A stretch of DNA of 60,252 nucleotides, from the NCBI GenBank assembly GCA_964400885.1, contig CAYNWH010000007.1, forward strand, positions 1-60,252, written 5' to 3'. Positions 1,959 through 51,974 of this stretch are shown here, one piece after another. Below the pieces are notes generated by a model that saw nothing but the letters and a program-made list of their open reading frames with translations, was not told the DNA's origin and did no database searches. Position numbers and translations under genes: made by a program. The DNA is from an uncultured Gammaproteobacteria bacterium (lineage in GTDB: Bacteria; Patescibacteriota; Patescibacteriia; CAIXNZ01). Each line of letters opens with the position of its first letter. Within the stretch, counting starts at the first letter, position 1.

Positions 1959-3008
1959 TCAGCCAGAGGCTGATGCGCCTTTGGCGGAAAAATTTAAAAC
2001 TAAATTCTCCACCGCTAGACGCGGATTTATATTATAATTTAAAAATTGATTAATCTTTTTTATTTCAGACAGCAAACCGATTATTTCACTATTGGAATAT
2101 TTTTTTGCTAAGCGGCTAATTTTATCCTTGTAAGAAAAATTAGTCATTAAAGCAGATAAATTATTTTTTTCTAATAAAACGTCCCGCAAAATCAGCTGCC
2201 AAAAATCTAATTCCTCTTTCAGATAATCACTTATTTCTAAATTATTTTTAAAATCAAGCAATAAATCATTAATAATCCGGAAACGCGCGGTTAAATTATG
2301 CTGAAAAAGTTCTAAAAATTGATTGATTCTATCTGAATAATCCTTGAAAAGTTCTGGTTTTTTATAAAAATCAACAGCCAAACCAATTTGGCCATGAGCT
2401 AAAGCTGTAAATAAACGCCCCTGTTCGCGGCTTGCCTCCAAACTTATTAAATGATGGAAAATCTTTTCATCGCTAAGCGGTAAGAATTTAATTAATTGGC
2501 AGCGGGAGACAAGCGTAGCTAAAAGTAATTTAGGGTCAGTTGATATTAAAATTAGAATAGTTTTTCTTTTAGGTTCTTCTAAAATTTTCAAAAGAGCATT
2601 TTGGCTGCTTTCATTTAAATCATCAGCATTTTCTATTAAAGCAATTTTATAACTATTTAAAAAAGAGGCCATCTGCAAAAGTTTTTGCATTTCTCTGACT
2701 TGTTCAACACTGATATTCTTTTTATCTTCTTCTTTTTTTAAATAATAAACATCCGGATGAATCCCTTTGCTAATCTGGTTACAAAAAACACACTGGCCGC
2801 ATGGTATTTCCGCCAGGGGCAATTTATTTTTAAGATGATAATCGTGGCATAAAATAGCTGACATAAATTGCCGAGCCACAAAATTTTTGCCCAAATGGAC
2901 AGGACCGGCAAATAAATAAGCATGGGCTAATTTATCATTAACAATGTTTTTTTGCAAAAATTTAAGATTTTTTTCATGGCCGACTATCTGCCAATTAAAA
3001 TTTTTCAT
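1959..3008 (-). CDS. holB: DNA polymerase III delta' subunit
   Basis: AHAYLFAGPVHLGK P-loop-like box, CGQCVFCNQI zinc module and SRCQ sensor motif, all typical of HolB clamp-loader subunits. Confidence 0.85.
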   Translation of the reverse strand: MKNFNWQIVGHEKNLKFLQKNIVNDKLAHAYLFAGPVHLGKNFVARQFMSAILCHDYHLKNKLPLAEIPCGQCVFCNQISKGIHPDVYYLKKEEDKKNISVEQVREMQKLLQMASFLNSYKIALIENADDLNESSQNALLKILEEPKRKTILILISTDPKLLLATLVSRCQLIKFLPLSDEKIFHHLISLEASREQGRLFTALAHGQIGLAVDFYKKPELFKDYSDRINQFLELFQHNLTARFRIINDLLLDFKNNLEISDYLKEELDFWQLILRDVLLEKNNLSALMTNFSYKDKISRLAKKYSNSEIIGLLSEIKKINQFLNYNINPRLAVENLVLNFSAKGASASG

Positions 3009-4246: not shown

Positions 4247-6325
4247 TTATTTAAAGGTTACAGCAAACTCCTTATCACTATCCAAAGACGTTGAAAAATT
4301 ATAAGAAGTATTAAACCATTCGCTTTCTAGTTCTGCAGGGCCGGCTGATTTTATAGTTTTAGCAAATTTTAAATCCAATGTCAAATTAGGAATTACGCCT
4401 GGCTGTTTCTGAACTAAAAGGTTATAATTGCCGCTTTGGATCTGCTCCTTAATCCTTTGTGGCAGCTTATACTCAAAAGTTAAAACCCCGGTTTCATGAG
4501 GCTCTATGGAAATAAAAGCGCCAAAATAAGTCTTATTAAATTCTTCAGCCACTTCAACCTGGCCAGACTTGCCTTCAGGATCTCTGACTTTATCATTTTC
4601 CATTGCACCGCTGGAGCTTAATAATTCACTGCCTAAAGGTACATAAACTCTGGTATAGGATCTTAGCCTGGTTGATTTCCAGGTAAAATCCGCTTTGTTT
4701 TTATAAGTTAAAACAACTTTGGCAATAAGATCATCGCCCTGCCAGTTCAAAGAATAATCAGTAAAACGCTGCACATACTGGTCTGTTTTTAAACTGCCTA
4801 AATTACTATCAACTGCAAATAAATAATCATTGTCAGTATTTTTAACTTCCCCGCTCCAGCCGCGGCCAATTACTATTTGCTCTAATTCAGGATCTGTCAT
4901 ATAAATTAAAATTTGTTTTTGCTTTAAAGCATTAATCGCAATATCCAAAACCTCAGGCAATCTGCTGGTCGGCAAAGTGATGAGCTTAATCCTAATCTGA
5001 TCAGCCAGCTGTTTAATAATGCCTTTTCTTTCGGAAATCGGGATATTTTGTTCCTGATAAAGCTTGCCAACTATTAATTCCAGCTGATCCTGATAATTAT
5101 CTTCAGTAAATATCTGATTATCAACAACTAAAGGTCCGGTTAAATGCAATAATCCTTTTAAAATTTCCGGCGTCATGGCAATCACGCCATATAAATCCTG
5201 CTCATAAGGCAAAACATCCGGAATTTCTGTACCTTTTTCGCCGATAATTGGCTGGCCAGATTCTTTAAATCCTAAAATAACCTCGTTTTCCTTATCATAT
5301 ATATCCATGGCTTTCTTGGCAGTAGTCGGAAAATCAGGCGACCAGTTAATGTCGCGCAATGACCAGTCTGCTTGCTCTAAATATTTAGCGATTTGCCAGG
5401 GCGAAGCTTCTTTAACAACATGCTGGGTTGAACGGTCCAGATTATAAATATTATCAGTATCAAAACTTTCAATATCGCCGTCTTTTAATTTCAAAATGCC
5501 ATAAGTGCCGATAAACCCGCCAGTAGGACGCAATTCAGAATTATTTTGCAGTAAAAATAAATAGCTTCTGGGCTGATCAAAACCAACTACTTGCGGAATA
5601 ACTTTAAGCGTTGGCAAAGCATAATCAATCAGCTCTTTGACTTTGGGCAAATTTTCTTTTAGCGGCGCAATCCCGTCGCGCAATGGCTTAACTAATTTTT
5701 CTTCTGGAATAGCATCAATTGCCACTACTGCCTCGTCAATTTCTGATTGTACTTCTAAAAGCAAATCTTCTGACTCAACTATTTTATTTAAAATTTCTTT
5801 TTTCTGCGCTGTAGTAATTGTGGCATAAGTAATTGATTCATTTTGCAAAGGCGCCACAATATCATCAACCAATAAAACCACTTTTTCACCGCTGTCAGTT
5901 AATTTAATGCCAGCAATCAGAAGCTGATCAACCGCTTTAAATTGGCTGCCAACATAAGGTATCTGGCGCACAATAACAATTTTGTCCAAAAGACTTTTCG
6001 CCTGATTAAATTCTGAATTAGCCTGGCTGATTGAATCGGCAGCGCCTTTGAAATCGCGGTTAGTAACCTGATGAATAGCTGACTCCAAATTAGCTTTGGC
6101 CTCAAATGATAAATTATAAGCCTGCTTAAAATTTTCATAATAAACCAGGGCTAAAACAGCAGCAAGAATTAAAAAAGCAACCAAAAGCCCTAAAACAATT
6201 TTAAGCAATAAAAAAAACCTGTCTTTAAAGAGCGAACGCTTTGGTTTTTCTGTAATTTTAGAAAAATCAGGCGAAATATTCTGAGGCATCTCTGCCTTTT
6301 TGTCTTCAAATTGAGAAATAGGCAT
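4247..6325 (-). CDS. DUF4012 domain membrane-anchored protein
   Basis: N-terminal TM anchor followed by LLQNNSELRPTGGFIGTYG, the signature segment of DUF4012. Sits upstream of glycosyltransferases. Confidence 0.7.
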   Translation of the reverse strand: MPISQFEDKKAEMPQNISPDFSKITEKPKRSLFKDRFFLLLKIVLGLLVAFLILAAVLALVYYENFKQAYNLSFEAKANLESAIHQVTNRDFKGAADSISQANSEFNQAKSLLDKIVIVRQIPYVGSQFKAVDQLLIAGIKLTDSGEKVVLLVDDIVAPLQNESITYATITTAQKKEILNKIVESEDLLLEVQSEIDEAVVAIDAIPEEKLVKPLRDGIAPLKENLPKVKELIDYALPTLKVIPQVVGFDQPRSYLFLLQNNSELRPTGGFIGTYGILKLKDGDIESFDTDNIYNLDRSTQHVVKEASPWQIAKYLEQADWSLRDINWSPDFPTTAKKAMDIYDKENEVILGFKESGQPIIGEKGTEIPDVLPYEQDLYGVIAMTPEILKGLLHLTGPLVVDNQIFTEDNYQDQLELIVGKLYQEQNIPISERKGIIKQLADQIRIKLITLPTSRLPEVLDIAINALKQKQILIYMTDPELEQIVIGRGWSGEVKNTDNDYLFAVDSNLGSLKTDQYVQRFTDYSLNWQGDDLIAKVVLTYKNKADFTWKSTRLRSYTRVYVPLGSELLSSSGAMENDKVRDPEGKSGQVEVAEEFNKTYFGAFISIEPHETGVLTFEYKLPQRIKEQIQSGNYNLLVQKQPGVIPNLTLDLKFAKTIKSAGPAELESEWFNTSYNFSTSLDSDKEFAVTFK

Positions 6326-11596: not shown

Positions 11597-11625
11597 AACT
11601 TAACAGAACCTTGTTAAATTGTCAA
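11597..11625 (-). promoter_or_regulatory. sigma70-type promoter TTGACA-17-TAAGTT
   Basis: Read on the minus strand, upstream of 11264-11560. Confidence 0.5.
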
Positions 11626-13798: not shown

Positions 13799-13827
13799 AT
13801 AATAGCAAGAATTTCTAATTTTGTCAA
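13799..13827 (-). promoter_or_regulatory. sigma70-type promoter TTGACA-17-TATTAT
   Basis: Minus strand, upstream of 12254-13726. Confidence 0.5.
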
Positions 13828-20542: not shown

Positions 20543-21583
20543 TTAAAATTGGTTAAGGAATCTCAAATCCCCTGATTGTAATAAGCGAATATCATCTATC
20601 CCATATTTCATCATGACCAACCTTGTTAAACCCAAGCCAAAAGCAAAACCAGACCATTTGGCCGGATCAATACCGCCTGATTTCAAAACATTGGGATGAA
20701 CTAAGCCAGAACCCACAAATTCAATCCAGCCAGTCTGTTTACAAACAGAACAGCCTTTACCCCCGCAAATCAAACAACCAAAATCCAACTCAAAACCCGG
20801 TTCCACAAAAGGAAAATAGCCTGGCCTTAATCTGACCTTAACTTCTTTTTTAAAAATCGCTGAAAGCATTTCTTTCATCACAGCCACCAAATTAGCAATG
20901 GAAATTTCTTTATCAACCATAAGCCCCTCCAGCTGATAAAAAGTATGGTCATGGGAAGCATCAGTGGCTTCATTGCGAAAAACTCTACCTGGAACAACGC
21001 AACGCAAAGGCGCACCATATCTTTGCATAGCACGAATTTGAACTGGTGAAGTATGCGTACGTAAAACTAATTTATCTTTCCCTGAGCCTGTCGAAGGGTC
21101 AATATAAAAAGTATCTTGAGCATCTCTAGCCGGATGCCAGCTGGGAATATTTAAAGCCTCAAAATTATAATAATCAGATTCTAATTCCGGACCGTCTAAA
21201 ATCATAAAACCCATGGATTTAAAAATATCCTCCAATTCAGACTGAACTTGAGTCATGGGATGCAAATGGCCTAACTTATATTTCTCAATTTCCAAGGTCA
21301 CATCAATAAAATCCTGCTCCAAATTTGTTTCGGTTTGCAAATCCAAATCAGCCTTTTTTTTGTTTAAAGCTTTGCTTATTTCTTCCTTGACGTCATTAGC
21401 CATCGCCCCGAGCTTAGGCCGTAAATCTTCAGAAACATCTTTAATATCTTTCAAAAGCTTGGCCAATTCCCCGCTCTTTCTGGAAAAATATTTATTTTCA
21501 ATCTCCTGCCATTCTTTTGAATTTTTTATGCCCTGAATTTCTTTCAATGCCTGCTCCTTTAATTTTTTGAGATTTAATTCCAT
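20543..21583 (-). CDS. pheS: phenylalanine--tRNA ligase alpha subunit
   Basis: 346 aa with class-II motifs (HPARD..DTFY; RTHTS; GLGLTRL). Confidence 0.95.
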   Translation of the reverse strand: MELNLKKLKEQALKEIQGIKNSKEWQEIENKYFSRKSGELAKLLKDIKDVSEDLRPKLGAMANDVKEEISKALNKKKADLDLQTETNLEQDFIDVTLEIEKYKLGHLHPMTQVQSELEDIFKSMGFMILDGPELESDYYNFEALNIPSWHPARDAQDTFYIDPSTGSGKDKLVLRTHTSPVQIRAMQRYGAPLRCVVPGRVFRNEATDASHDHTFYQLEGLMVDKEISIANLVAVMKEMLSAIFKKEVKVRLRPGYFPFVEPGFELDFGCLICGGKGCSVCKQTGWIEFVGSGLVHPNVLKSGGIDPAKWSGFAFGLGLTRLVMMKYGIDDIRLLQSGDLRFLNQF

Positions 21584-21594
21584 AATATCTTAAT

Positions 21595-21654
21595 TTAGTC
21601 CGCCGAAGCTTCAGCGAAGGCGGGCTCTTTAAGTTTTTTAAGATTTAATTCCAT
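21595..21654 (-). other. 19-codon upstream ORF duplicating the pheS start (MELNLKKLKE + PAFAEASAD)
   Basis: Read by hand: atg gaa tta aat ctt aaa aaa ctt aaa gag ccc gcc ttc gct gaa gct tcg gcg gac taa. The first 10 residues are identical to PheS, and the tail is encoded by a GC-rich palindrome. Confidence 0.4.
21597..21626. repeat. GC-rich palindrome CCGCC-GAAGCTTCAGCGAA-GGCGG
   Basis: Shares GCCGAAGC and GCGAAGGC with 15078-15112 and with the outer arms of 10022-10069. Confidence 0.7.
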
Positions 21655-21657
21655 ATT

Positions 21658-22332
21658 TTATTTAATTATTTCTTCAAGTCTTTTCTGCCACCAATTTTGA
21701 ACCGACTGAAGATGTTTTTGGGGGCCTTGTTTTCTAAAATGGGCTAATCTCTCCTGGAAAATCTTATGATATTTTTTAAAATTAACCGAACTTCTTAAAG
21801 CCCATAAAGCAAACCTAATGTCTTGTTTTTCCTTTTCTTTAATAAATTTATCATCTAAATATCTATTGGGCGAATGGTCAAAATCAATCGAGACTAGCTT
21901 AATTTTATTTTTAAAAATCTTTTTGGCTAATAAATTAACTTTTTTCTCCCTTGTCTTTTCGCAAAAAATATAAATATCAGCTGGTAACAATTTCTTTTTC
22001 TCCAATATTTTTCTGGTAAATAATAAATTTTCTAAGGTTGACAAAGCTTTCGCTTCTTTAATAAATTGCCAATTATTAGTTTTCTTTCTAAGAAAAGGCC
22101 GTCTAGCTAAAACGTAAAAATACTTAACCATTTCTCCGGCTTCATCCCTTTTAAAAGGCTTAAAAATATCTGTTTTGCCGCCGCTAAAAACGATTAAAGG
22201 CTTTTTTATCTTATTTTTCAAAGAGATCTCATAGATATTATTAAACGCCAATTTTAAATAAGTTTTATAATTCTCATCTTTGCGAATATCTTTAGGTATG
22301 CCATAGCCTAAAACCAGAAATAAAGTCTGCAT
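21658..22332 (-). CDS. DUF218/YdcF-like protein
   Basis: The layout LVLGYG...IVFSGGKT...EAGEM..Y...STLENL resembles the DUF218 (YdcF/ElyC) core. Assignment is tentative. Confidence 0.45.
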   Translation of the reverse strand: MQTLFLVLGYGIPKDIRKDENYKTYLKLAFNNIYEISLKNKIKKPLIVFSGGKTDIFKPFKRDEAGEMVKYFYVLARRPFLRKKTNNWQFIKEAKALSTLENLLFTRKILEKKKLLPADIYIFCEKTREKKVNLLAKKIFKNKIKLVSIDFDHSPNRYLDDKFIKEKEKQDIRFALWALRSSVNFKKYHKIFQERLAHFRKQGPQKHLQSVQNWWQKRLEEIIK

Positions 22333-22351
22333 ATTTTATAAAAATTATTTT

Positions 22352-22388
22352 CCTATCACCAATCACTAATGACCAATAGCTAATTATC
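22352..22388. repeat. heptamer word array
   Basis: CCTATC ACCAATC ACTAATG ACCAATA GCTAATT ATC. Confidence 0.8.
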
Positions 22389-22392
22389 AAAA

Positions 22393-23505
22393 TTACTGCA
22401 CAATTTTCGCTATGATATTAGTAAAAATATCGCTATAACGAATTACGTCCTGAAAAGTAATAATAATCACCAAAATCATTAAAACAGCAAAGCCTATTGT
22501 ATGGACAATTGATTCAATTTTCTGGGAAACTGGTTTACGGCGGATTTTTTCAATAGCCAGGAATAAAAGCCGGCCGCCGTCCAAAGCCGGAAAAGGTATG
22601 AAATTTATAATTGCTAAATTTAAAGACAGCAAAGCAGTAAATTGTAAAACATAAATAAAGCCTAAACGAGCGACCTGGCCGGTTAAAACAGCTATGCCCA
22701 CGGGACCAGAAACCTGAACGCCAAGCGGCTTGCCAATAATTAAATTTTTCAAAATATTGCCAAAAGCAAAAACAATTTCCTTGGTCAATAAGCCGGTTAA
22801 TTTAAAGCCCTGCCAAATCGCTTGGTGAATAGGATAAGCAACAATGCCTGTTTCTACCAGGCCAATGCCAATGCCAGCCTTGCCATCACCAATATCCACG
22901 ACCTGAATGTCTTTATCTAAAATTTGACCATCTCTTTGAATTTTATAATCTACTGTCTGGCCGATTTTACTGGAAGTATCAGCTAATAGTTTATTCACGC
23001 CTTTTACTTCCTGGCCGTCAACAGCTAAAAGCACATCGCCGACTTTTATGCCGGCTTCTTTAGCCGGCTTGTCATCTAGCACAGAAACAACCTGAACTTT
23101 ATAATCTTTAACCAAGCCCTGCTCCAATGCTGTCTGATCAACTGCCTGCGGCAAGCCAATGGCAAAGCCAAAAGTAAACAAAACAGCGCAAAGCAAAAAA
23201 TTCATAACCACACCAGCTACCAAAACAATAGCCCGGCGCCAGGCTTTTTGGCTGGCAAAACTATCCGGATCTTTACGATTTTCACCATCTTCACCTTTTA
23301 TTTTGACAAAACCGCCTAAAGGGATCCAATTAACTGAATAAAAAACTCCGTCTTTACCTTTTTTGCCCCAAATTCTGGGCGGAAAGCCAAAGCCGAATTC
23401 CTCAACTTTCATGCCCATTTTTTTGGCTGTAATAAAATGGCCAAATTCATGGACAAAAACTAAAATGCCTAAAACAATAACAAAAATTAATACAGTAAAA
23501 AGCAT
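22393..23505 (-). CDS. rseP: RIP site-2 metalloprotease RseP (M50)
   Basis: HEFGHF zinc motif, a central PDZ-like segment and the NFIPFPALDGG motif. Confidence 0.9.
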   Translation of the reverse strand: MLFTVLIFVIVLGILVFVHEFGHFITAKKMGMKVEEFGFGFPPRIWGKKGKDGVFYSVNWIPLGGFVKIKGEDGENRKDPDSFASQKAWRRAIVLVAGVVMNFLLCAVLFTFGFAIGLPQAVDQTALEQGLVKDYKVQVVSVLDDKPAKEAGIKVGDVLLAVDGQEVKGVNKLLADTSSKIGQTVDYKIQRDGQILDKDIQVVDIGDGKAGIGIGLVETGIVAYPIHQAIWQGFKLTGLLTKEIVFAFGNILKNLIIGKPLGVQVSGPVGIAVLTGQVARLGFIYVLQFTALLSLNLAIINFIPFPALDGGRLLFLAIEKIRRKPVSQKIESIVHTIGFAVLMILVIIITFQDVIRYSDIFTNIIAKIVQ

Positions 23506-23578
23506 GTATCTAAATTTAATATTAAAAAAATTTATAACTTAATTTTAGCTTAACTAAAAATAAAAATCAAATCCAGGC

Positions 23579-23607
23579 TTGACATTTTTGATAAAATTTG
23601 CTAATAT
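23579..23607 (+). promoter_or_regulatory. promoter TTGACA-17-TAATAT (RNA 1)
   Basis: Exact -35 hexamer, 17-nt spacer. Confidence 0.55.
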
Positions 23608-23613
23608 TTTATT

Positions 23614-23848
23614 AACTAAAAGAATTGCTAATCTCAGTATTAACTTCGGGTTAGGCGAGACAGGCAGTGTACAATGTTTGTCTCAAGAGTTGCGATCTAC
23701 TGGGCCAGGTCACAAAGGGCTCTAACGATCGATCCCGAGGGAGAAACCTTAGCTGAAAAAGCGCGCTATAGCTGAGGCAGAATCCTAGCCGTAAGGCAAA
23801 AACTCTAATTTTCGAAAAAAAGCCGCTTAACGGCTTAAATTTTTTTTA
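23614..23848 (+). ncRNA. candidate structured RNA 1 (~235 nt), family unknown
   Basis: TTGACA-17-TAATAT promoter at 23579-23607. GC-rich body in an AT-rich genome. Long-range pairing GGTTAGG (23649-23655) / CCTAGCC (23784-23790), a GAGACA/TGTCTC hairpin, and an ending at the AAGCCG-CTTAA-CGGCTT + T8 terminator. No convincing ORF or SD. Confidence 0.45.
23820..23847. terminator. bidirectional terminator AAGCCG-CTTAA-CGGCTT flanked by an A-run and a T-run
   Basis: A7 upstream and T8 downstream. Confidence 0.55.
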
Positions 23849-23956
23849 GGGCCCGCAAAAAAGAGCTGTATGGCCAAAAACCAGGCCAAGGCTTAGGTCA
23901 TGCTCTCTAGGGCCCAAGTACTATTCCGCGGTCTGATATTCATCAGACCGCTTTAT
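23849..23956 (+). ncRNA. candidate structured element 1b (nested helices plus a strong hairpin); may be a read-through extension of RNA 1
   Basis: GGGCCC (23849-54) pairs with GGGCCC (23910-15), AGAGC/GCTCT and TGGCC/GGCCA are nested inside, then a 10-bp hairpin GCGGTCTGAT-ATTC-ATCAGACCGC (23928-23951). It has no promoter of its own. Confidence 0.3.
23928..23956 (+). terminator. 10-bp hairpin GCGGTCTGAT-ATTC-ATCAGACCGC + TTTAT
   Basis: Strong stem, short U-tract. Confidence 0.45.
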
Positions 23957-23958
23957 GA

Positions 23959-23987
23959 TTGACAATATGAATTCTCTTTGCTAATCT
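23959..23987 (+). promoter_or_regulatory. promoter TTGACA-17-TAATCT (sRNA 2)
   Basis: Exact -35 hexamer, 17-nt spacer. Confidence 0.55.
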
Positions 23988-23993
23988 TTATTA

Positions 23994-24107
23994 TTACAGT
24001 AAATTAATGTCTGCTAGTTTTTCTTTCTGTTCGCTAGACTTACGTCAGCTGAGCTACATTACTTTATTTTCCTGTAAAGGAAGGCGAGATTCTTAATCTC
24101 GCCTTTT
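23994..24107 (+). ncRNA. candidate small RNA 2 (~113 nt), paralogue of sRNA 3
   Basis: TTGACA-17-TAATCT promoter (23959-23987). The 5' arm 23996-24009 pairs with 24057-24070. Terminator GGCGAGAT-TCTTA-ATCTCGCC + TTTT. Confidence 0.5.
24083..24107 (+). terminator. terminator of sRNA 2
   Basis: GGCGAGAT-TCTTA-ATCTCGCC + TTTT. Confidence 0.6.
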
Positions 24108-24111
24108 AAAC

Positions 24112-24140
24112 TTGACGAAAATTAATTATTATGTTAAGTT
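24112..24140 (+). promoter_or_regulatory. promoter TTGACG-17-TAAGTT (sRNA 3)
   Basis: -35 matches 5 of 6 positions, 17-nt spacer. Confidence 0.5.
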
Positions 24141-24146
24141 AACAAA

Positions 24147-24257
24147 TTACAGTATTGTGTCGCAGTCTTTTGCTTGTTCCAATACGCTAGAGCATCGTCA
24201 CCTCAACTAAATTGCAGCACGATACAGCCAAAGGCGAGATTTCACATCTCGTCTTTT
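24147..24257 (+). ncRNA. candidate small RNA 3 (~110 nt), paralogue of sRNA 2
   Basis: TTGACG-17-TAAGTT promoter (24112-24140). The 5' arm 24149-24165 pairs with 24212-24228. Terminator GGCGAGAT-TTCAC-ATCTCGTC + TTTT. Shares ATTACAGTA, CGCTAGA and CGTCA blocks with sRNA 2. Confidence 0.5.
24233..24257. terminator. terminator of sRNA 3, abutting the murI stop (possibly bidirectional)
   Basis: GGCGAGAT-TTCAC-ATCTCGTC + TTTT. The murI stop codon is at 24256-24258. Confidence 0.55.
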
Positions 24258-25086
24258 ATAATTCCACTTTTTCAAATTTAATCCCTGAACCAAACCATTT
24301 TTCGCCTAATTGCTGATAATGTGGCGATAAATCAGTTACTTGAAATTTATATTGGGAATTTTTATCAAGTTTACTCTCAAGTTCCGAATGCCTTTGTAAA
24401 TAATCAGCCAAAGATTCAGCCACTATTTCACCGGAATTTAAAACTTTGACACTTTTACCCATTACACCCTGAATTTCTTTTAGCAAAATCGGATAATGAG
24501 TACAGCCTAAAATCAAAGTGTCAATTTTAGCGTTTTTAAAAGGCTTTAAATATTTGCGCAAAACTTTTTTAGTTATATCAGATTTTTGCCAGCCTTCTTC
24601 CACTAAAGGCACCAGTAAAGGTGTTGCCTGCTGCAAAACTTCTAATTGCGGATTTAGTTTGGCAATTTCACGAATATAAGCCTGAGAGTTTATTGTTGAT
24701 TTAGTGCCAATCACGCCGATTTTCTTTTTTGCAACTTTAACAGCATCTTCAACCACTGGTCTAATCACACCCAAAACCCGGCGATCAGGAAAGTTTTGTG
24801 GCAGCCATTCTTGCTGAATTTTACGCAAAGCCTCAGATGAAGCAGTATTGCAGGCTAAAATAACCAATTGGCAATCTTGTTTAAATAAAAAATCAACTGC
24901 CTGCTTAGCAAATTGATAAATTACTTCCTGCGACCGGTTGCCATAAGGCGTCCGTGCATTATCACCTAAGTAAATGTAATCATATTGCGGCAGTTTTTTG
25001 ATTAACTCTTTTAAAATAATCAAACCGCCCAAGCCTGAATCAAATATGCCGACTTTTCCGCCTCTGCCAGTCATATTAATAATCAT
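24256..25086 (-). CDS. murI: glutamate racemase
   Basis: IGIFDSGLGG, LACNTAS and LGCTHYP motifs carrying the two catalytic Cys. Confidence 0.9.
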   Translation of the reverse strand: MIINMTGRGGKVGIFDSGLGGLIILKELIKKLPQYDYIYLGDNARTPYGNRSQEVIYQFAKQAVDFLFKQDCQLVILACNTASSEALRKIQQEWLPQNFPDRRVLGVIRPVVEDAVKVAKKKIGVIGTKSTINSQAYIREIAKLNPQLEVLQQATPLLVPLVEEGWQKSDITKKVLRKYLKPFKNAKIDTLILGCTHYPILLKEIQGVMGKSVKVLNSGEIVAESLADYLQRHSELESKLDKNSQYKFQVTDLSPHYQQLGEKWFGSGIKFEKVEL

Positions 25087-25110
25087 AATTTAAAATTATT
25101 TACTGCTGCT

Positions 25111-25139
25111 ATTATACGAAATTTGCGTAAAAAAGACAA
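25111..25139 (-). promoter_or_regulatory. promoter TTGTCT-17-TATAAT (murI)
   Basis: Minus strand, about 25 nt upstream of the murI ATG. Confidence 0.4.
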
Positions 25140-25168
25140 AAGAGATTAACTTGCGCCAACCTCTTTTA
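25128..25168 (-). terminator. hairpin AAAGAG..CTCTTT + T-run after the 82-aa gene
   Basis: Minus strand. Overlaps the murI -35 box. Confidence 0.35.
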
Positions 25169-25185
25169 TTTACCCTTATTAAGCC

Positions 25186-25434
25186 TTAGGGATGAAACAT
25201 AGAATAAACATCAAAGAACCTTTGCAAAAACATTAAGATAGGAATTACTGCTAGAAAACCCCACCCAATGCTCAAAAGTATGCATCCTGTCTTTGCATGA
25301 TACAAAGAATCCTTTATTGCTTGCTCACTATAGTCACTTAGAGTAACAACTGCACTACGGATAAAATTGTGTATGCCTAATAATCCAAAAGTAACGCCTA
25401 AAACCCCAGTGAATGTGCCGAGTGTCATACTCAC
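25186..25434 (-). CDS. small membrane protein (82 aa), unknown function; stand-alone transcription unit
   Basis: Two hydrophobic segments, a TTGACA-17-TATATT promoter at 25456-25484 and a hairpin downstream. Somewhat GC-richer than its neighbours. Confidence 0.45.
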   Translation of the reverse strand: MSMTLGTFTGVLGVTFGLLGIHNFIRSAVVTLSDYSEQAIKDSLYHAKTGCILLSIGWGFLAVIPILMFLQRFFDVYSMFHP

Positions 25435-25455
25435 CCTCCTTTATGTTAATGCCTC

Positions 25456-25484
25456 AATATATCAAAAAAATAAAAATCTGTCAA
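25456..25484 (-). promoter_or_regulatory. promoter TTGACA-17-TATATT (82-aa membrane protein)
   Basis: Minus strand. Confidence 0.5.
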
Positions 25485-25527
25485 CAAACAATCAAGAATT
25501 GATGGTCTGCTTTAAAAGCTATTAAAT

Positions 25528-26871
25528 TTATTTTATTATTTTTAATATTTCCTTAACCTTCGCATCCACCATTTCCTGTGTTTTTGCTTCCACATTCAAA
25601 CGAATCAAAGGTTCAGTATTTGATTTGCGCAAATTAAAACGCCAGTCTTTGAATTCCGCAGAAACTCCGTCAATATGCGAAATTTTGCCGTCTTTATATT
25701 TTTCTTCCGCATTTTTCAAAACAACATCTGGATCATTGACGTGCGTATTTATTTCGCCGGAAATAGGGTAATTTTTGCGGTAATAATCAGCAATTTCCGA
25801 CATTTTTTTCTTTTCCAGAGAAAGCATTTCCCAGATTAATAAAAAGGGAATCATGCCATTATCAGCGTAAAAATTATCTTTAAAATAATAATGCCCAGCA
25901 GTTTCACCGCCAAAAATAATATTTTTTTTCTTCATTGTATCTTTAATAAAAGCATGCCCGGGCTTATTAATAATTAACTGGCCATGCATTTTTTTAACTA
26001 CATCTCTAATAGCCCAGATTAAACGCACATCACATAAAATCTTTTGTTTAGGAAATTTACTTAAATAATGTTTGGCCAAAATTGCAGTAATATAATAGGC
26101 ATCAACAAAATCACCTTTTTCATCAAAGAAAAAACAGCGATCAGCATCAGCATCCCAGGCCACGCCCAAATCAACTTTTTCTTTTTTTACTAAATCTTCA
26201 ACTTCTTTTCTTCTTTCTGGAATCTTAGGGTCAGGCCGGCCTTTAGGAAAATTACCATCTGGCTGGAAATTTAATTCAGTAATCTCAATAGGTAAACCCT
26301 TTACCATTTTTTTCAAAACCTGGCCCGCCATGCCAAAATTGGCATCAGCTACAATTTTCATGGGCTTTAAATCTTTAGTATTTATAAAAGATAAACAATG
26401 GCTGACATAATCTGCCAAAATATCTTTTTTAATAATCTCCCCCTTTTCCGGCTCCATAATCTCTTCGCCCTTAAGAGCTTCTTTTTTAATTTCTAAAAGC
26501 CCAGTATCTTCAGAAATGGCAATTGCTTCCTCTCTCACAAACTTAATCCCATTATATTCCTTGGGATTATGAGAGGCAGAAATAGTCATGCCCCCGCCAT
26601 AACCGTAATAGGCCACGGCAAAATACATCATATCAGTAGAAACTGTGCCAATATCAATCACGTCATAACCAGCATTGGTTATGCCTTTGGCAGCAGACTG
26701 CCATAGACTGGGAGACGAAATACGGACATCTTTACCTAGAACAATTGCTCCTTGGGGCTTAAAAACCCTAAGATAAGCTTGGGCAATTTTATAAACTGCG
26801 TCTTCATTAATTTCATCGGGATAAATGCCCCTCACATCATAGGCATGAAAAATTTCTGGATTTAATTTCAT
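25528..26871 (-). CDS. phosphomannomutase/phosphoglucomutase family enzyme
   Basis: TISASHNPKEYNG active-site serine loop and the WDADADR metal-binding loop. Confidence 0.9.
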   Translation of the reverse strand: MKLNPEIFHAYDVRGIYPDEINEDAVYKIAQAYLRVFKPQGAIVLGKDVRISSPSLWQSAAKGITNAGYDVIDIGTVSTDMMYFAVAYYGYGGGMTISASHNPKEYNGIKFVREEAIAISEDTGLLEIKKEALKGEEIMEPEKGEIIKKDILADYVSHCLSFINTKDLKPMKIVADANFGMAGQVLKKMVKGLPIEITELNFQPDGNFPKGRPDPKIPERRKEVEDLVKKEKVDLGVAWDADADRCFFFDEKGDFVDAYYITAILAKHYLSKFPKQKILCDVRLIWAIRDVVKKMHGQLIINKPGHAFIKDTMKKKNIIFGGETAGHYYFKDNFYADNGMIPFLLIWEMLSLEKKKMSEIADYYRKNYPISGEINTHVNDPDVVLKNAEEKYKDGKISHIDGVSAEFKDWRFNLRKSNTEPLIRLNVEAKTQEMVDAKVKEILKIIK

Positions 26872-39359: not shown

Positions 39360-39388
39360 ATTATATTAAAACAATTTTTCTTTGTCAA
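39360..39388 (-). promoter_or_regulatory. promoter TTGACA-17-TATAAT (DksA/TraR-like gene)
   Basis: Consensus in both hexamers. Abuts the recG stop codon. Confidence 0.6.
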
Positions 39389-42226: not shown

Positions 42227-42377
42227 ATAATTTGTCTGTTTAAGATTGATTTACTTAATTATATTATAAATAAAAATAAAGCTTTTGGCAAATAAATCCC
42301 TTATTTTTATTAACAATTGACTTTTAATGAATTTCAAGCTAAAATATTAGATATTAGCGTAATTTAAGAAGGCTTTT

Positions 42378-47550: not shown

Positions 47551-48936
47551 TTAATATTTTAAACTTTTATTTAACTCCATAATAGCTCTAAATTCCTCCA
47601 AAGTTATAATTGGATTTTCTTTTAATATTTGGTCAAATGATTTACCTTGTTTAATTGCCCTATTCATAATATCAGCATAGGTCTTATAAAGCGGGCTGCT
47701 TTTCAAAGCTTTAATCCCCTCTGTCCTTTTAACGATTGATTCTTCTTCCAAGAGATCTAATTTATCTTTTATTTTATCAATTGCTGACTTAGGATCTTTA
47801 GAAAGGCGCCGCAAATCTTCTATTTTAAAAGCAGCTAATTCATCAATAGGACCATATAACTTAGCAGCAAATTTAACATCTTCAATTTTGGGCCTGGCTT
47901 CTGAAAAAGGTTTTTTGAAGAAAGGCTGCTTTTCCTCTGTCTGCGGCGCGCTAGGTGCAGACGTTACTGGCGGCATAACTGGCTGAGAAACAGGTTCAGG
48001 TTTGGGAACTGGCTTTGTCTCAATCTTTTTTTCTGGCTCTTTTTCTTCTTTAGTAGTTAAAGCTGGCGGCGGTGGCGTTATTTCTTCCCTGCTTTCTAAA
48101 AATTCTTCCTCATCTTCTATCTTTTTTATTAAAGGACTAGCCGTCAGCTCTTGAGCTTTTTTCTCTTCTTCCATTAATTCCTTTTTAATCGCTTCTTTTT
48201 TGCTTAATTCTGCAAATTTCATGCCCTTATCTTTAAGCAGCTGATCAATGGTAATATCTGCGCCTGTAATTTTGGTTTCTGTTTCTTCCGGCCTTTTAAC
48301 TTTGGCAGCCACGTCTATTTCTTCTTCTTTAGCTTCTTTTTCTTTAAAAACCTTTTTTTCTTTTTCTAATTCCTGGCTAATTAAATCCCTGATTTTAACT
48401 CCCTGATTTGCATAACTGGCTTCAATATTTTTTAAAATCTTAAGCAAATTCTGTCCCTCACTGTATTTCAAACCCAAGCCGCCAATTTTATTGCTTCTGG
48501 TTAAAATATCTAATGTTTCGCTGTCATCTCTAATATCGCGAAACCAATTAAAAATAATGTCCTCAAATCTCTTTTCATAACGTTCACTGATTTTTAATTT
48601 TGCCTGTTTTTCTATTGCCTTGATAATATCTTCAAGTTTTGCCTGCACTGGCTCGCTGACTCCTGCCTGCCTTACAACATTTTCCGGCAACAAAGGAAAT
48701 AATTCATTTTCCAGATCATAAGTCAAATCTAAAACTAAATTAAAATTTAAATTAGCTTTTTCCTGAATTGCCAGATCAAGTTCATCTTCCTTTATCTTGC
48801 CGCTAAAATAATCGATTAAAATTTGTCTTATAATATCTTCCTTTTTTTTCTCAATTTTATATCTATCGATTAATTCATCAAGTTTAGTTGCAACCTCTAT
48901 TTTATCAAAATATTCTTGAATATTAAAATCTGTCAT
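47551..48936 (-). CDS. acidic/lysine-rich hypothetical protein (461 aa) of the T4SS-like operon
   Basis: Highly charged, with a central KE-rich and P-rich linker. No TM segment. Ends 4 nt upstream of the next gene's start. Confidence 0.5.
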   Translation of the reverse strand: MTDFNIQEYFDKIEVATKLDELIDRYKIEKKKEDIIRQILIDYFSGKIKEDELDLAIQEKANLNFNLVLDLTYDLENELFPLLPENVVRQAGVSEPVQAKLEDIIKAIEKQAKLKISERYEKRFEDIIFNWFRDIRDDSETLDILTRSNKIGGLGLKYSEGQNLLKILKNIEASYANQGVKIRDLISQELEKEKKVFKEKEAKEEEIDVAAKVKRPEETETKITGADITIDQLLKDKGMKFAELSKKEAIKKELMEEEKKAQELTASPLIKKIEDEEEFLESREEITPPPPALTTKEEKEPEKKIETKPVPKPEPVSQPVMPPVTSAPSAPQTEEKQPFFKKPFSEARPKIEDVKFAAKLYGPIDELAAFKIEDLRRLSKDPKSAIDKIKDKLDLLEEESIVKRTEGIKALKSSPLYKTYADIMNRAIKQGKSFDQILKENPIITLEEFRAIMELNKSLKY

Positions 48937-48962: not shown

Positions 48963-51900
48963 TTATTTTTCTATCAAAGCGCCGGAAATCATGGTATTCA
49001 TTGCTGTTTCCATATCAGCCACTAGGCCCTGAACTTCTTCAGCAGTCAGGTCTTTACGTGTTCTGGCAAAATCCTCCAAGCGCTTTAATCTGGCCGTATA
49101 TTCTTTAGCTAATTGTTCATTTAATTTAGCGCCTCTTCTTTTTAATTTCGTTTCATAAGCAGACATGGCTTTTCTGACCTTATACAAACCTTTTTGTAAT
49201 GATTGTTTAACCTCGCCCTTAGCACCCTGCTGCTGGGCCGTAGCTAAATCAGCTTGGCTTATTTCTGGTAAGCCGCTAATTTTAACCTGATCACCTTCAG
49301 GCGTAACGCCAATATCAGAAAACCCAACATCTTCAAGTACCTCCTGGTTAACCGCGCCAGCAGCCAAACTTCGCTTAAGCTGGGATTCTCTGTGATTAAC
49401 CATTTGTCTGGCCCGATTTTCTGCTGTATCAGCTGAAACACCTCGTGATTGCAAAGCTTTTCTGATTTCAGCAATAACTTGCCCGCGATTGCGGAATTGT
49501 CCCGTCGGTTTATCAAAATTACTTTCTGCTAAAGTTTGTTTATTTTGGCTTTCGGTCTGCATAAATTGATTCATGTCATCTATTTCCATAACGCCAGGCA
49601 CAGGCTGCGGCCTTTTAGGTAAAGACGGCATAACAGTTTGCCTTGAGCCATTAATAATTTTAGCTTTAAGAAACTGCTTGCCAGCCTTATATTGATTAGT
49701 GGCATAATCACTAACAGAATCCACTGTCCTGCCTTTTAAAGCTAAAATACTATCCATTCTTTCTTTGCCAATAGCTCTTTCTGCTAATCTGGATAATCTG
49801 CCTCCGGCTGGCACTGGCGGTGCTTCAGGTGCTGGCCCTGCTGCTGGTGCTGGCGGTACAGTGGGCGGCTGACCAGCCCCACCCCTTGGGCCTTGAGCAT
49901 AATCATTAGCTTTCATACCAGTTGGCAAATACTCATCTCCCAGAATCAAATGGCCTTGGCTAACTCCGGTTGGCGCAGTATCATCTTTACGCCGTTCGCC
50001 ATTTGACTGATATTCAGCTGTGGCTGCCTCATACATTTTATTAAGCTGTTTTCTTTCAGAATCAGAAAATTGAGCCATACTATCCGGATTAGATGCAACT
50101 TCTTCAATGGCTGACGCAATATTTCTTCTAGCGCCCGGATTATAGCGGCCATAATTTTCTGTTTCCTCACCATATGCCATTAATTCATCTTTCCAAAATT
50201 CATTGCGGTCTTCACCTGTCTCAGGATCAAGCTTGCGCCGAGCAAACTTGCTTTGCTCAGCCATTTGGCTTTGCTCACTGATTTTCATTCTCCTGACTGA
50301 ATCTTTATATTCTTCTGCCGGCGTAGTAGTTTTTGGCTTTATCAAACCTTCTTCTGTCACATATAAATTATTAGTCCTCATATGACGGCCCGTTTCGTTT
50401 TTGTAATCCCGGCCTAATTGCTCAGTAAATTCAAAAAATGGCCGATCTCCCATTGTGCGGCTGAATTTCTTAGTAAAATCACCAACATCTTTAGTATCTA
50501 TCCAGCCGTTTTTAGCGCCTTGGGACATTAAAGCCCGCGCTTCCCTTAAATCGCCTTTTTTATTAGCTGCACCTAATCTTTTGCGCCAGACATTAGGATT
50601 TAAAAAAGCGCCTTCAGAATTTAACCTTTTAGTATCCTTTTCTTCCCATTGCTGCCTGACTCTTTCCACTGCCATTTTTCGCGGACCAAATCTTGAGCGA
50701 GCAGTAGCGCTTACTCTTTCAGCCGCTTCTTTTCTGCCTTCAGCTGTAGCATATCTTAAATATTTATTGCGCCGCGCATAATCACCGACAGCCTGCATCG
50801 CACCCCTGACTGGCGCACCAGCCGCTCTGACAGGAGCCATAGCAATGCCCTGCGCAGCTGCGCCAGCTCTTCTGGCCCCTCTTTCCAGCCTGCCCGCTGT
50901 TTGGTTTCTAATGGCGTTAAACCCACCAGTGGCATAGCCAGAACCAACCACGCCCATCCGGCCTGTGAAATACAAACCGCCAACCAGCATAATAATGCCC
51001 ATCATAAACCCTACTGCTCCCTCTGCCGTACCAGCGGGTGAATTAAGGCCATTCACATTATTAGTTATTTCACTTTGCTTAAAGCCGCCACTAACAGCGT
51101 CTTGGGTAATGTTTTGAGAAACACCATTCATGCTAATAATGGCAATCCACAGGAAAAAAGCTAAAAATGGCCCGACCATACAGTATTTAAAAAACTCACC
51201 CCACCATTGCTGGGATAAAGAAGCGATTTTACCGCCGGCTGGCTCAAAAACCCAGGAGAAAAAAGCTAAAGGCGAAAACACAATCAAAATCCATAAAGCC
51301 ACAATTCTAAAAGCCAAAATCACGCAAAAAATCGCGACTACAATCGTAGCAATAATAACAAATATTAAACCAAAGATACTACCTACCATTGAATCTATGT
51401 CCGCATGACTAGTGCCTGCCTGCACATCATAATTATATTTAAATAAATCTGCTGAGCCAAAACCATTTATCAAATTGCCTTGAGTAATATCTTTAAAGGA
51501 TTTAACAAAAGTTATCATAATCACCTGAAAAAAATCAATTATCAAACCAGCAATAGTCCGGCTAAAATTAACCAAAATCGCCATAATTAATAAACGGCCT
51601 AAAAGCTTGTTATAAGAATATTTTTCAATTTTCAAAACTGTGGCAAAAGCGATCAAAAGCAAACCCAGTATAAAAAACATATTAACAATATCGCGGATAA
51701 TCACCCAGCCTTTTTGCACATAAGAATTATAAATAAAATTATTATATAAGCTTAACATCACTAAAAGTTTAACCAATAAAATCAAAACCTTGCCAACTAA
51801 ACTTATCAGGGTCTGAACAATAAAATTAATAATGGAAATGCCAACCGATTTGGCTGCTCCCATAATATCCATATTAGTAGCTGAAACTCGTTCTATGGGT

Positions 51901-51974
51901 ATTAAAACCAAAACTAAAAGCATTACCAAAAATACGGCCAGCAATAATTTTTTATTTTTTATTTTTTTCAGCAT
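48963..51974 (-). CDS. polytopic membrane protein, VirB6/TrbL-like N-domain with a ~650-aa hydrophilic C-terminal extension
   Basis: About 7 TM segments in the first ~340 aa. The tail contains PPTVPPAPAAGPAPEAPPVPAGG and is visibly GC-richer, which explains the many shadow ORFs. Position next to the VirB3/VirB4 genes. Confidence 0.5.
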   Translation of the reverse strand: MLKKIKNKKLLLAVFLVMLLVLVLIPIERVSATNMDIMGAAKSVGISIINFIVQTLISLVGKVLILLVKLLVMLSLYNNFIYNSYVQKGWVIIRDIVNMFFILGLLLIAFATVLKIEKYSYNKLLGRLLIMAILVNFSRTIAGLIIDFFQVIMITFVKSFKDITQGNLINGFGSADLFKYNYDVQAGTSHADIDSMVGSIFGLIFVIIATIVVAIFCVILAFRIVALWILIVFSPLAFFSWVFEPAGGKIASLSQQWWGEFFKYCMVGPFLAFFLWIAIISMNGVSQNITQDAVSGGFKQSEITNNVNGLNSPAGTAEGAVGFMMGIIMLVGGLYFTGRMGVVGSGYATGGFNAIRNQTAGRLERGARRAGAAAQGIAMAPVRAAGAPVRGAMQAVGDYARRNKYLRYATAEGRKEAAERVSATARSRFGPRKMAVERVRQQWEEKDTKRLNSEGAFLNPNVWRKRLGAANKKGDLREARALMSQGAKNGWIDTKDVGDFTKKFSRTMGDRPFFEFTEQLGRDYKNETGRHMRTNNLYVTEEGLIKPKTTTPAEEYKDSVRRMKISEQSQMAEQSKFARRKLDPETGEDRNEFWKDELMAYGEETENYGRYNPGARRNIASAIEEVASNPDSMAQFSDSERKQLNKMYEAATAEYQSNGERRKDDTAPTGVSQGHLILGDEYLPTGMKANDYAQGPRGGAGQPPTVPPAPAAGPAPEAPPVPAGGRLSRLAERAIGKERMDSILALKGRTVDSVSDYATNQYKAGKQFLKAKIINGSRQTVMPSLPKRPQPVPGVMEIDDMNQFMQTESQNKQTLAESNFDKPTGQFRNRGQVIAEIRKALQSRGVSADTAENRARQMVNHRESQLKRSLAAGAVNQEVLEDVGFSDIGVTPEGDQVKISGLPEISQADLATAQQQGAKGEVKQSLQKGLYKVRKAMSAYETKLKRRGAKLNEQLAKEYTARLKRLEDFARTRKDLTAEEVQGLVADMETAMNTMISGALIEK

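Follow-up and report, generated by a model that had tools for sequence, protein, structure and literature searches.

In contig CAYNWH010000007.1 (GenBank assembly GCA_964400885.1, an uncultured bacterium) two adjacent units on the plus strand, units 2 and 3, are located in the spacer between the genes of an RseP-like M50 protease and glutamate racemase (murI), and may constitute a lineage-specific tandem pair of stand-alone small non-coding RNA (sRNA) genes, a reading to which we give somewhat less than an even chance. They would be an orphan tandem pair with no assignable family. The window analysed is the whole stretch of 60,252 nucleotides (nt), and the source genome belongs to the Patescibacteria (Candidate Phyla Radiation, CPR) and is of the Falkowbacteria/Parcubacteria type, with metagenome-assembled genomes of Candidatus Falkowbacteria and Parcubacteria as the top genome matches, and with a MurI that shows at most 83–84% identity to any other protein found. 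The spacer is 750 nt long and lies between the RseP-like M50 protease gene (22393–23505, minus strand) and murI (24256–25086, minus strand, stop codon at 24256–24258). It holds three plus-strand units that each run from a promoter to a terminator, namely unit 1 followed by units 2 and 3, and murI is convergent with units 2 and 3. Over 22272–25077 the sequence is matched with 100% identity by an independent Logan assembly (SRR9700623), and units 2 and 3 are therefore not a product of misassembly.

Promoter and terminator motifs and predicted closing helices of units 2 and 3

The promoter of unit 2 (23959–23987, plus strand) has TTGACA at 23959–23964 and TAATCT at 23982–23987, spaced by 17 nt and with a TG at 23979–23980, and that of unit 3 (24112–24140, plus strand) has TTGACG and TAAGTT with the same spacing and also a TG. 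Both are near-consensus, with the TGn of an extended -10 promoter. The window has 15 occurrences of the motif TTGAC-N15-TGnTAnnnT, compared with 4.4±1.9 in shuffled sequence, and its six exact matches are all intergenic, three of them being the promoters of the spacer, including those of units 2 and 3, and the other three being located directly upstream of protein genes. The enrichment, and the good placement of the exact matches, indicate that promoter-like sequences of this kind are meaningful in this genome.

Unit 2 ends in an intrinsic-terminator-like hairpin followed by UUUU (24079–24108, plus strand; GC core 24083–24091 and 24095–24103), where positions 24083–24107 read GGCGAGAT-TCTTA-ATCTCGCC-TTTT, and unit 3 ends in a terminator-like hairpin with UUUU (24231–24259, plus strand; arms 24233–24240 and 24246–24253), where 24233–24257 read GGCGAGAT-TTCAC-ATCTCGTC-TTTT and the tail overlaps the murI stop codon. 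The U-tracts of both terminators are better on the plus strand than on the minus strand. From the geometry of promoter and terminator, unit 2 is predicted to give a transcript of about 113–116 nt (23993–24108, plus strand) with its transcription start site (TSS) at A23993–A23996, and unit 3, from the same geometry and the fold, one of about 110–114 nt (24146–24259, plus strand). Each copy thus appears to have its own promoter and Rho-independent terminator, as expected of tandem sRNA paralogues. An initial annotation of this DNA had claimed TTGACA-17-TAATCT and TTGACG-17-TAAGTT promoters, near-identical terminators and a convergence on the 3' end of murI; the promoters and terminators are all in place, and with murI on the minus strand and its stop codon overlapped by the tail of unit 3 the convergence is confirmed as well.

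The extended -10 motif has further sites in the window, at 4356–4384, 11597–11625, 13799–13827, 25456–25484 and 39360–39388 on the minus strand and at 42317–42345 on the plus strand, among others. The last of these has one mismatch and is located upstream of tRNA-Ser, and the site at 11597 may drive an open reading frame (ORF) of about 98 aa that is absent from the ORF list and has a strong Shine-Dalgarno (SD) sequence.

Units 2 and 3 show 57% identity (88 of 154 columns) and align without gaps through the body. Their local alignment score of 53, against 17.2±2.8 for shuffles, indicates that they are true paralogues, as had been proposed. The identity is clustered (p=0.017, sum of squared run lengths): the -35 regions are identical at 5/6 positions, the 9-mer ATTACAGTA at the predicted TSS of both units at 9/9 and the terminators at 22/27, and TGnTAAnnT is identical at 6/9 over the 9-mer, with all 6 specified motif positions the same. 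The most diverged segments are the arms of the helix described below, with 2/12 and 8/20 identical positions. Both units contain the block CGCTAGA-N4-CGTCA (24032–24047 in unit 2, in the apical region inside the helix, and 24185–24200 in unit 3, plus strand), which the window contains twice, each time on the plus strand and 30 nt from ATTACAGTA. ATTACAGTA and CGCTAGAnnnnCGTCA are confined to units 2 and 3 within the window, with an identical spacing of 30 nt, and the common 5' start and the internal CGCTAGA and CGTCA blocks that had been noted are present in both copies. The promoter, the TSS 9-mer, the block at fixed spacing, the arm complementarity and the terminator are all kept despite a divergence of about 43%, which suggests that both copies have been maintained as transcription units for a structured RNA.

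The closing helix of unit 2 is formed by 23996–24009 and 24057–24070, and that of unit 3 by 24149–24165 and 24212–24228 (all plus strand), and the helices enclose 46–47 nt. These pairings, claimed at the outset, are reproduced in the minimum free energy and centroid structures of RNAfold, with pair probabilities of 0.53–0.75 in unit 2 and about 1.0 in unit 3. When the first 25 nt of each body are paired with its last ~28 nt in a register-free test against 2000 shuffles, the arms of unit 2 give a duplex energy of -13.0 kcal/mol compared with -6.3±2.3 in shuffles (p=0.0135), and those of unit 3 give -17.9 kcal/mol compared with -7.3±2.6 (p=0.0005). The helix of unit 2 is symmetric between the strands. 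That of unit 3 is weaker on the minus strand (-12.5 kcal/mol, p=0.085) because of its G-U pairs, an asymmetry that points to an RNA from the plus strand. In a common register the RNAalifold consensus has 13 long-range pairs, and 7 of them are changed on both sides, compared with a mean of 1.0 after column shuffles and re-prediction (7 being reached in 0 of 1000) and with 0–2 in controls with a slid register. The whole of unit 2 folds with -32 kcal/mol (z -4.2), mostly due to the terminator.

Each unit would be transcribed from a strong σ70-type extended -10 promoter and stopped by its own intrinsic terminator, and the RNA of about 113 nt, presumably stable, is predicted to fold into one long hairpin followed by the terminator hairpin. 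The closing helix between the 5' and 3' parts, drifted in sequence but still paired, would present the apical region with CGCUAGA-N4-CGUCA. The RNAs would most probably be regulators acting in trans, with the loop block and the 5' AUUACAGUA, both single-stranded, binding the same mRNA or protein, and AUUACAGUA and CGCUAGAnnnnCGUCA are the candidate blocks for base-pairing with targets. By analogy with known tandem sRNA paralogues, the two copies may act redundantly or additively.

OmrA/OmrB of E. coli, PrrF1/PrrF2 of Pseudomonas and AbcR1/AbcR2 of Rhizobiales are tandem paralogous sRNA genes. Units 2 and 3 resemble them in layout only, as adjacent genes of about 80–150 nt on the same strand, each with what would be its own promoter and Rho-independent terminator, with a probable origin by local duplication and with conserved ends or blocks around a diverged middle. 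They differ from this class in that there is no sequence or Rfam relationship and that they come from a single CPR population, and their shared elements are partly located in the apical loop and not clearly in a single-stranded 5' seed.

The rseP-murI spacer and the RNA family of unit 1

The units are surrounded by the genes for the RseP-like M50 protease, MurI, PGM/PMM and PheS, and the gene order PGM-MurI-spacer-RseP-PheS is kept in the closest relatives. In a comparison of loci L001–L009, L081–L086 and L122–L128 the spacer is hypervariable among relatives that are otherwise syntenic, and is a hot spot of gene-content change. It is empty (118–184 nt) in L085 and L126, and contains a sigma70_r4-like gene in L001, L003, L006, L081, L084 and L122, a gene for a 617–620-aa protein in L001 and L124, an acetyltransferase gene in L122, a 45-aa membrane ORF in L004 and L005, and one or two RNAs of the unit 1 type in L082, L004, L005, L009 and L001. 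Units 2 and 3 are absent from all the spacers compared, and their motifs have no match in the syntenic relatives.

Compared with the closest syntenic relative, L082, units 2 and 3 constitute an insertion of 303 nt (23957–24259) with TTTAT at both junctions (23952–23956 and 24255–24259), this repeat being the tail of a terminator. In L082 the terminator of the unit-1-type RNA abuts the end of murI, where CAGACCGCTTTTTTAT is directly followed by AATTCCAC, and the window has CAGACCGCTTTAT followed by GATTGACA at one junction and CGTCTTTTAT followed by AATTCCAC at the other. Such an exact insertion suggests a lineage-specific gain of the two units, or else their loss in all other relatives.

The region 23450–24350 has no match in Rfam 15 at the gathering threshold; the best E-value is 0.25, to L20_leader (20.4 bits against a threshold of 58.7), at a terminator hairpin on the minus strand, and at E<=10 there are terminator echoes and nothing else. 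The initial annotation could assign no family, and this statement stands also after the covariance-model scan that it had proposed. A covariance model built from units 2 and 3, CM R1, scores 136.7 bits for unit 2 and 127.6 bits for unit 3, by construction as these are the training sequences, and finds no further copy within the window. In blastn and nhmmer searches of the units against all the relative loci, similarity of the promoters to L001 was found and nothing else.

A few matches were rejected. Positions 1967–2089 (plus strand) of L124 score 23.8 bits with CM R1 and are not accepted as a homologue because the promoter would fall inside the 5' arm and the match is largely due to the terminator and AU pairs; a match in a viral contig with 22.9 bits shares the terminator and nothing more; and in blastn against plasmids there are two Borrelia matches with E=0.9 that are taken as chance. 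The L124 segment has a terminator and a long closing helix around an inner hairpin, and could be an analogous small RNA module.

Unit 1 (23579–23958, plus strand) has a promoter at 23579–23607, a structured RNA of about 345 nt (23612–23958) and a terminator at 23928–23951, and is not homologous to units 2 and 3. RNAs of its type are located in L082 (4812–5178), L001 (10021–10451 and 9643–9976), L004 (7056–7266), L005 (6986–7214) and L009 (6878–7176), all on the minus strand. The family is seen solely in the rseP-murI spacer of close relatives, in six related loci and with a tandem duplicate in L001, and every copy comes with an extended -10 promoter and a terminator of its own. The 5' part of the family core consists of ACGUCGGGUUAGG, a hairpin, AAGAGUU, a second hairpin and CCCGAUGGAGAA, and the 3' part of a hairpin with a GCGCGC-containing loop, AUCCUA, a GNRA-capped hairpin and AAAAACUC, which gives the motif string ACGUCGGGUU...AAGAGUU...CCCGAUGGAG...AUCCUA...AAAAACUC with a P1 pairing. 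By inspection, covariation is seen in P1 (CGUCGGG/CCCGAUG) and in several hairpin stems, and pseudoknots are suggested by the order of the complementary segments. The automated consensus structure of the core recovered P1 and nothing else, as the variable hairpins were poorly aligned by MAFFT. The family has no Rfam match and looks like an uncatalogued class of non-coding RNA (ncRNA), and it is a more valuable lead than units 2 and 3.

Units 2 and 3 share with the family of unit 1 the locus, the strand, the promoter type TTGACA-N14-TGnTAAnnT, the stand-alone arrangement of promoter, RNA and terminator, the tandem duplication (in L001) and a helix closing just after the TSS, but they do not have the family core and are a third of the size. 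An nhmmer profile of the core matched unit 1 in the window and not units 2 and 3. The promoter of unit 2 shows 71% identity over 31 nt to that of unit 1 and resembles the type of unit 1 and L001 copy A (E=6.8 for the L001 copy), and the promoter of unit 3 shows 83% identity over 36 nt (E=0.002) to that of the second unit-1-type RNA in L001. In L084 there is a stub (2360–2450, minus strand) consisting of a promoter, about 20 nt and the family terminator. This stub and the promoter similarities to L001 suggest that the locus shuffles promoter-RNA-terminator modules.

Other gene gains are seen around murI and pheS in the relatives. L124 (1604–3440, plus strand) and L125, where MurI is 79% identical, have a gene for a retron-type reverse transcriptase (RT; 313 aa; PADLOC RT_II-A, E=6e-55) between pgm and murI, and L124 also has a perfect 13-bp inverted repeat upstream of the RT gene (2127–2139 and 2355–2367), like retron a1/a2, and a duplicated 5' fragment of murI at about 1768–1810. 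An IS200/IS605-type Y1 transposase gene is located between pheS and pheT in L126 (6703–7269), L127 (5923–6489) and L128 (4298–4864). In the window itself a very large ORF of 2746 aa is found at 51993–60233 on the minus strand, with ORFs of 1003 aa (48963–51974) and 461 aa (47551–48936) following on the same strand.

Weighing the alternatives

Several results weigh against a functional sRNA pair. The bodies of the units fold no better than shuffles when the terminator is left out (z -0.63 for unit 2 and -1.40 for unit 3), the helix of unit 2 is AU-rich and has a preferred register 5 columns off from that of unit 3, the common register has a pair probability of about 0.2 in unit 2 compared with about 1.0 in unit 3, and the covariation comparison has n=2 sequences. 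What was originally claimed as covariation holds in so far as the arms differ and the pairing is kept, with the 7 double-sided changes, but because there are two sequences with differing registers and an ordinary body stability the signal of the closing helix is real but thin. Out of the 92 non-self loci searched with CM R1, 63 (36 Patescibacteria-type genome loci, 8 close-relative contigs and 19 viral pattern matches) have no match up to E=10, and the other 29 have chance or borderline matches at most. The pattern ACAGTA-N27-33-CGCTAGA-N4-CGTCA has 13 matches in the metagenome contigs scanned, all of them by chance and sharing nothing beyond the searched pattern, and four pattern scans of viral contigs gave chance matches only, while blastn in distant mode against phages gave nothing. 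No homologue in a related genome was thus found among the loci searched, a result that the initial annotation had itself named as counting against its proposal. Nor is there any site complementary to the conserved blocks in the 60-kb window, and with 43 translation-start regions, the three tRNAs and unit 1 the predicted duplexes are no more stable than with shuffled sequences.

Some of these results fit the possibility that the units are an evolutionary by-product, that is promoter-terminator modules with little or no function created by duplication and recombination in a hypervariable spacer and perhaps transcribed to no particular end, which we consider unlikely but still deserving of weight. 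The spacer differs in almost every relative, the stub in L084 has a promoter and a terminator around about 20 nt, no relative has the units, which make up a clean 303 nt insertion with TTTAT microhomology at both ends, and the stability of the bodies is ordinary. At 43% divergence, however, neutral decay should erode promoters, terminators and arm pairing in at least one of the copies, and all three are kept in both, with arms that have changed compensatorily. The location next to murI could also indicate a cis-acting cassette, where the hairpins would mainly be 3'-end or bidirectional terminators of murI, and where the strong convergent promoters would modulate murI through transcriptional interference or through antisense pairing with a read-through murI 3' untranslated region. 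The hairpin of unit 3 is the sole hairpin directly after the murI stop codon, beginning 2 nt past it and with its tail overlapping it, a unit-1-type terminator is located at the equivalent position in L082 and L009, and since the U-tracts of the hairpins are poor on the minus strand a read-through murI transcript may be fully complementary to the units. Such a cassette is nevertheless quite improbable, as a pure terminator or antisense needs no conserved 5' 9-mer, no block at fixed spacing and no compensated helix, two full promoter-RNA-terminator units exceed the needs of a terminator, and the helix of unit 3 and the U-tracts favour the plus strand. A riboswitch or attenuator leader was rejected, as the next gene, murI, is convergent and not on the same strand; a segment complementary to the 5' arm of the terminator was not seen in the bodies by inspection, which was not a systematic search.

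Small-protein genes have to be considered, as unit 2 has a candidate start at ATG 24007 (29 aa, MSASFSFCS...) and unit 3 one at GTG 24157 (17 aa, MSQSFACS...), which are in the same alignment frame and give similar N-termini. The initial annotation had seen no credible ORF, in part due to the lack of an SD sequence, and this part of the argument is void: an SD core (GGAG/GAGG/AGGA) upstream of the start is scored in just 4 of the 44 genes of the window, a fifth gene, hyp82, having an SD-like GGAGG immediately before the start and just beyond the scored span. Most gene starts in the window are preceded by AU-rich sequence, suggesting that translation in this genome mostly begins without an SD sequence, and the AU-rich context of ATG 24007 and GTG 24157 resembles that of ordinary starts. 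The case against the ORFs must therefore rest on other evidence. The differences between the units are even over the codon positions (13/11/13, 11/13/12 and 13/12/10 in the three frames), the peptides are unequal in length, hydrophilic and without similarity beyond that expected from 57% DNA identity, the unit 2 ORF ends within the terminator loop, and both start codons lie within the predicted closing helix. On these grounds the verdict of no credible ORF is borne out and coding is highly improbable, and units 2 and 3 lack the conserved small hydrophobic ORF that would be expected of a small membrane protein gene or of a type I toxin-antitoxin system. We also regard it as very unlikely that the units derive from the family of unit 1 by retaining no more than its promoter, 5' leader and 5' hairpin domain and acquiring a terminator, and it is just as hard to believe that, as stand-alone descendants of this 5' hairpin domain, they would work with the family in trans as a fragmented ncRNA. 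Unit 1 of the window, which the units might complement, lacks the 60–85 nt 5' domain found in L082, L009 and L001, the promoters are similar to those of copies A and B in L001, the leaders are alike, and the 5' domain of the family has the same architecture, with a helix a few nt after the TSS that encloses 46–62 nt. The best local match, that of unit 2 inside the 5' domain of L082 (CTGTAAAGG.A.GCG), has p=0.016 but is not significant after correction for 8 tests, nor are the alignments to whole unit-1-type RNAs (z<=2.3). In addition CM R1 matches no member of the family, the long 5' domain is missing from L004 and L005 too and no such units occur there, and neither unit 2 nor unit 3 ends in the terminator that the family has in the window, L082 and L001. 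A remnant of a mobile or defence element, such as a miniature inverted-repeat transposable element, a retron ncRNA or a TIGR-like guide array, would agree with the TTTAT flanking the insertion, with the 5'/3' inverted repeats of each unit and with the retron beside murI in L124 and L125, but is barely credible. There are no terminal inverted repeats at the ends of the 303 nt insertion, TTTAT is merely the terminator tail, no other copies are found in the window or related loci, and a Pfam scan of the six nearest genes (20543–26871) found no RT, Tas/Nop or transposase. With the retron msr-msd ncRNA the units share a predicted non-coding transcript within inverted repeats, but they have no adjacent RT gene, a terminator for each unit and 46–47 nt enclosed, and an msr-msd RNA would need a longer body. 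TIGR-Tas systems are marked by their Nop-domain content and by the compactness of the array. In the account of PMC12045711 a TIGR guide array is a tandem array of short repeat-spacer units with a Tas gene, and it was rejected here, as the two units of about 150 nt have their own promoters and terminators, in contrast to compact repeat arrays, and there is no such gene among the six nearest.

Implications for CPR genomes

With these alternatives weighed, a tandem pair of sRNA genes is the interpretation that we tentatively retain for units 2 and 3. They are found in one population, with no homologue or target among the sequences searched, which limits what can be concluded from sequence. We know of no regulatory small RNA from CPR/Patescibacteria that has been characterised by experiment, and none surfaced in the literature that was searched. 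In this Falkowbacteria-like lineage, the rseP-murI spacer is a hot spot where promoter-RNA-terminator modules and small genes appear to be gained, duplicated and lost, and the tandem candidate with strong promoters and compensatory stem evolution constitutes a concrete target for metatranscriptomic validation. If the interpretation is correct, it would mean that reduced CPR genomes still create new riboregulators by local duplication.

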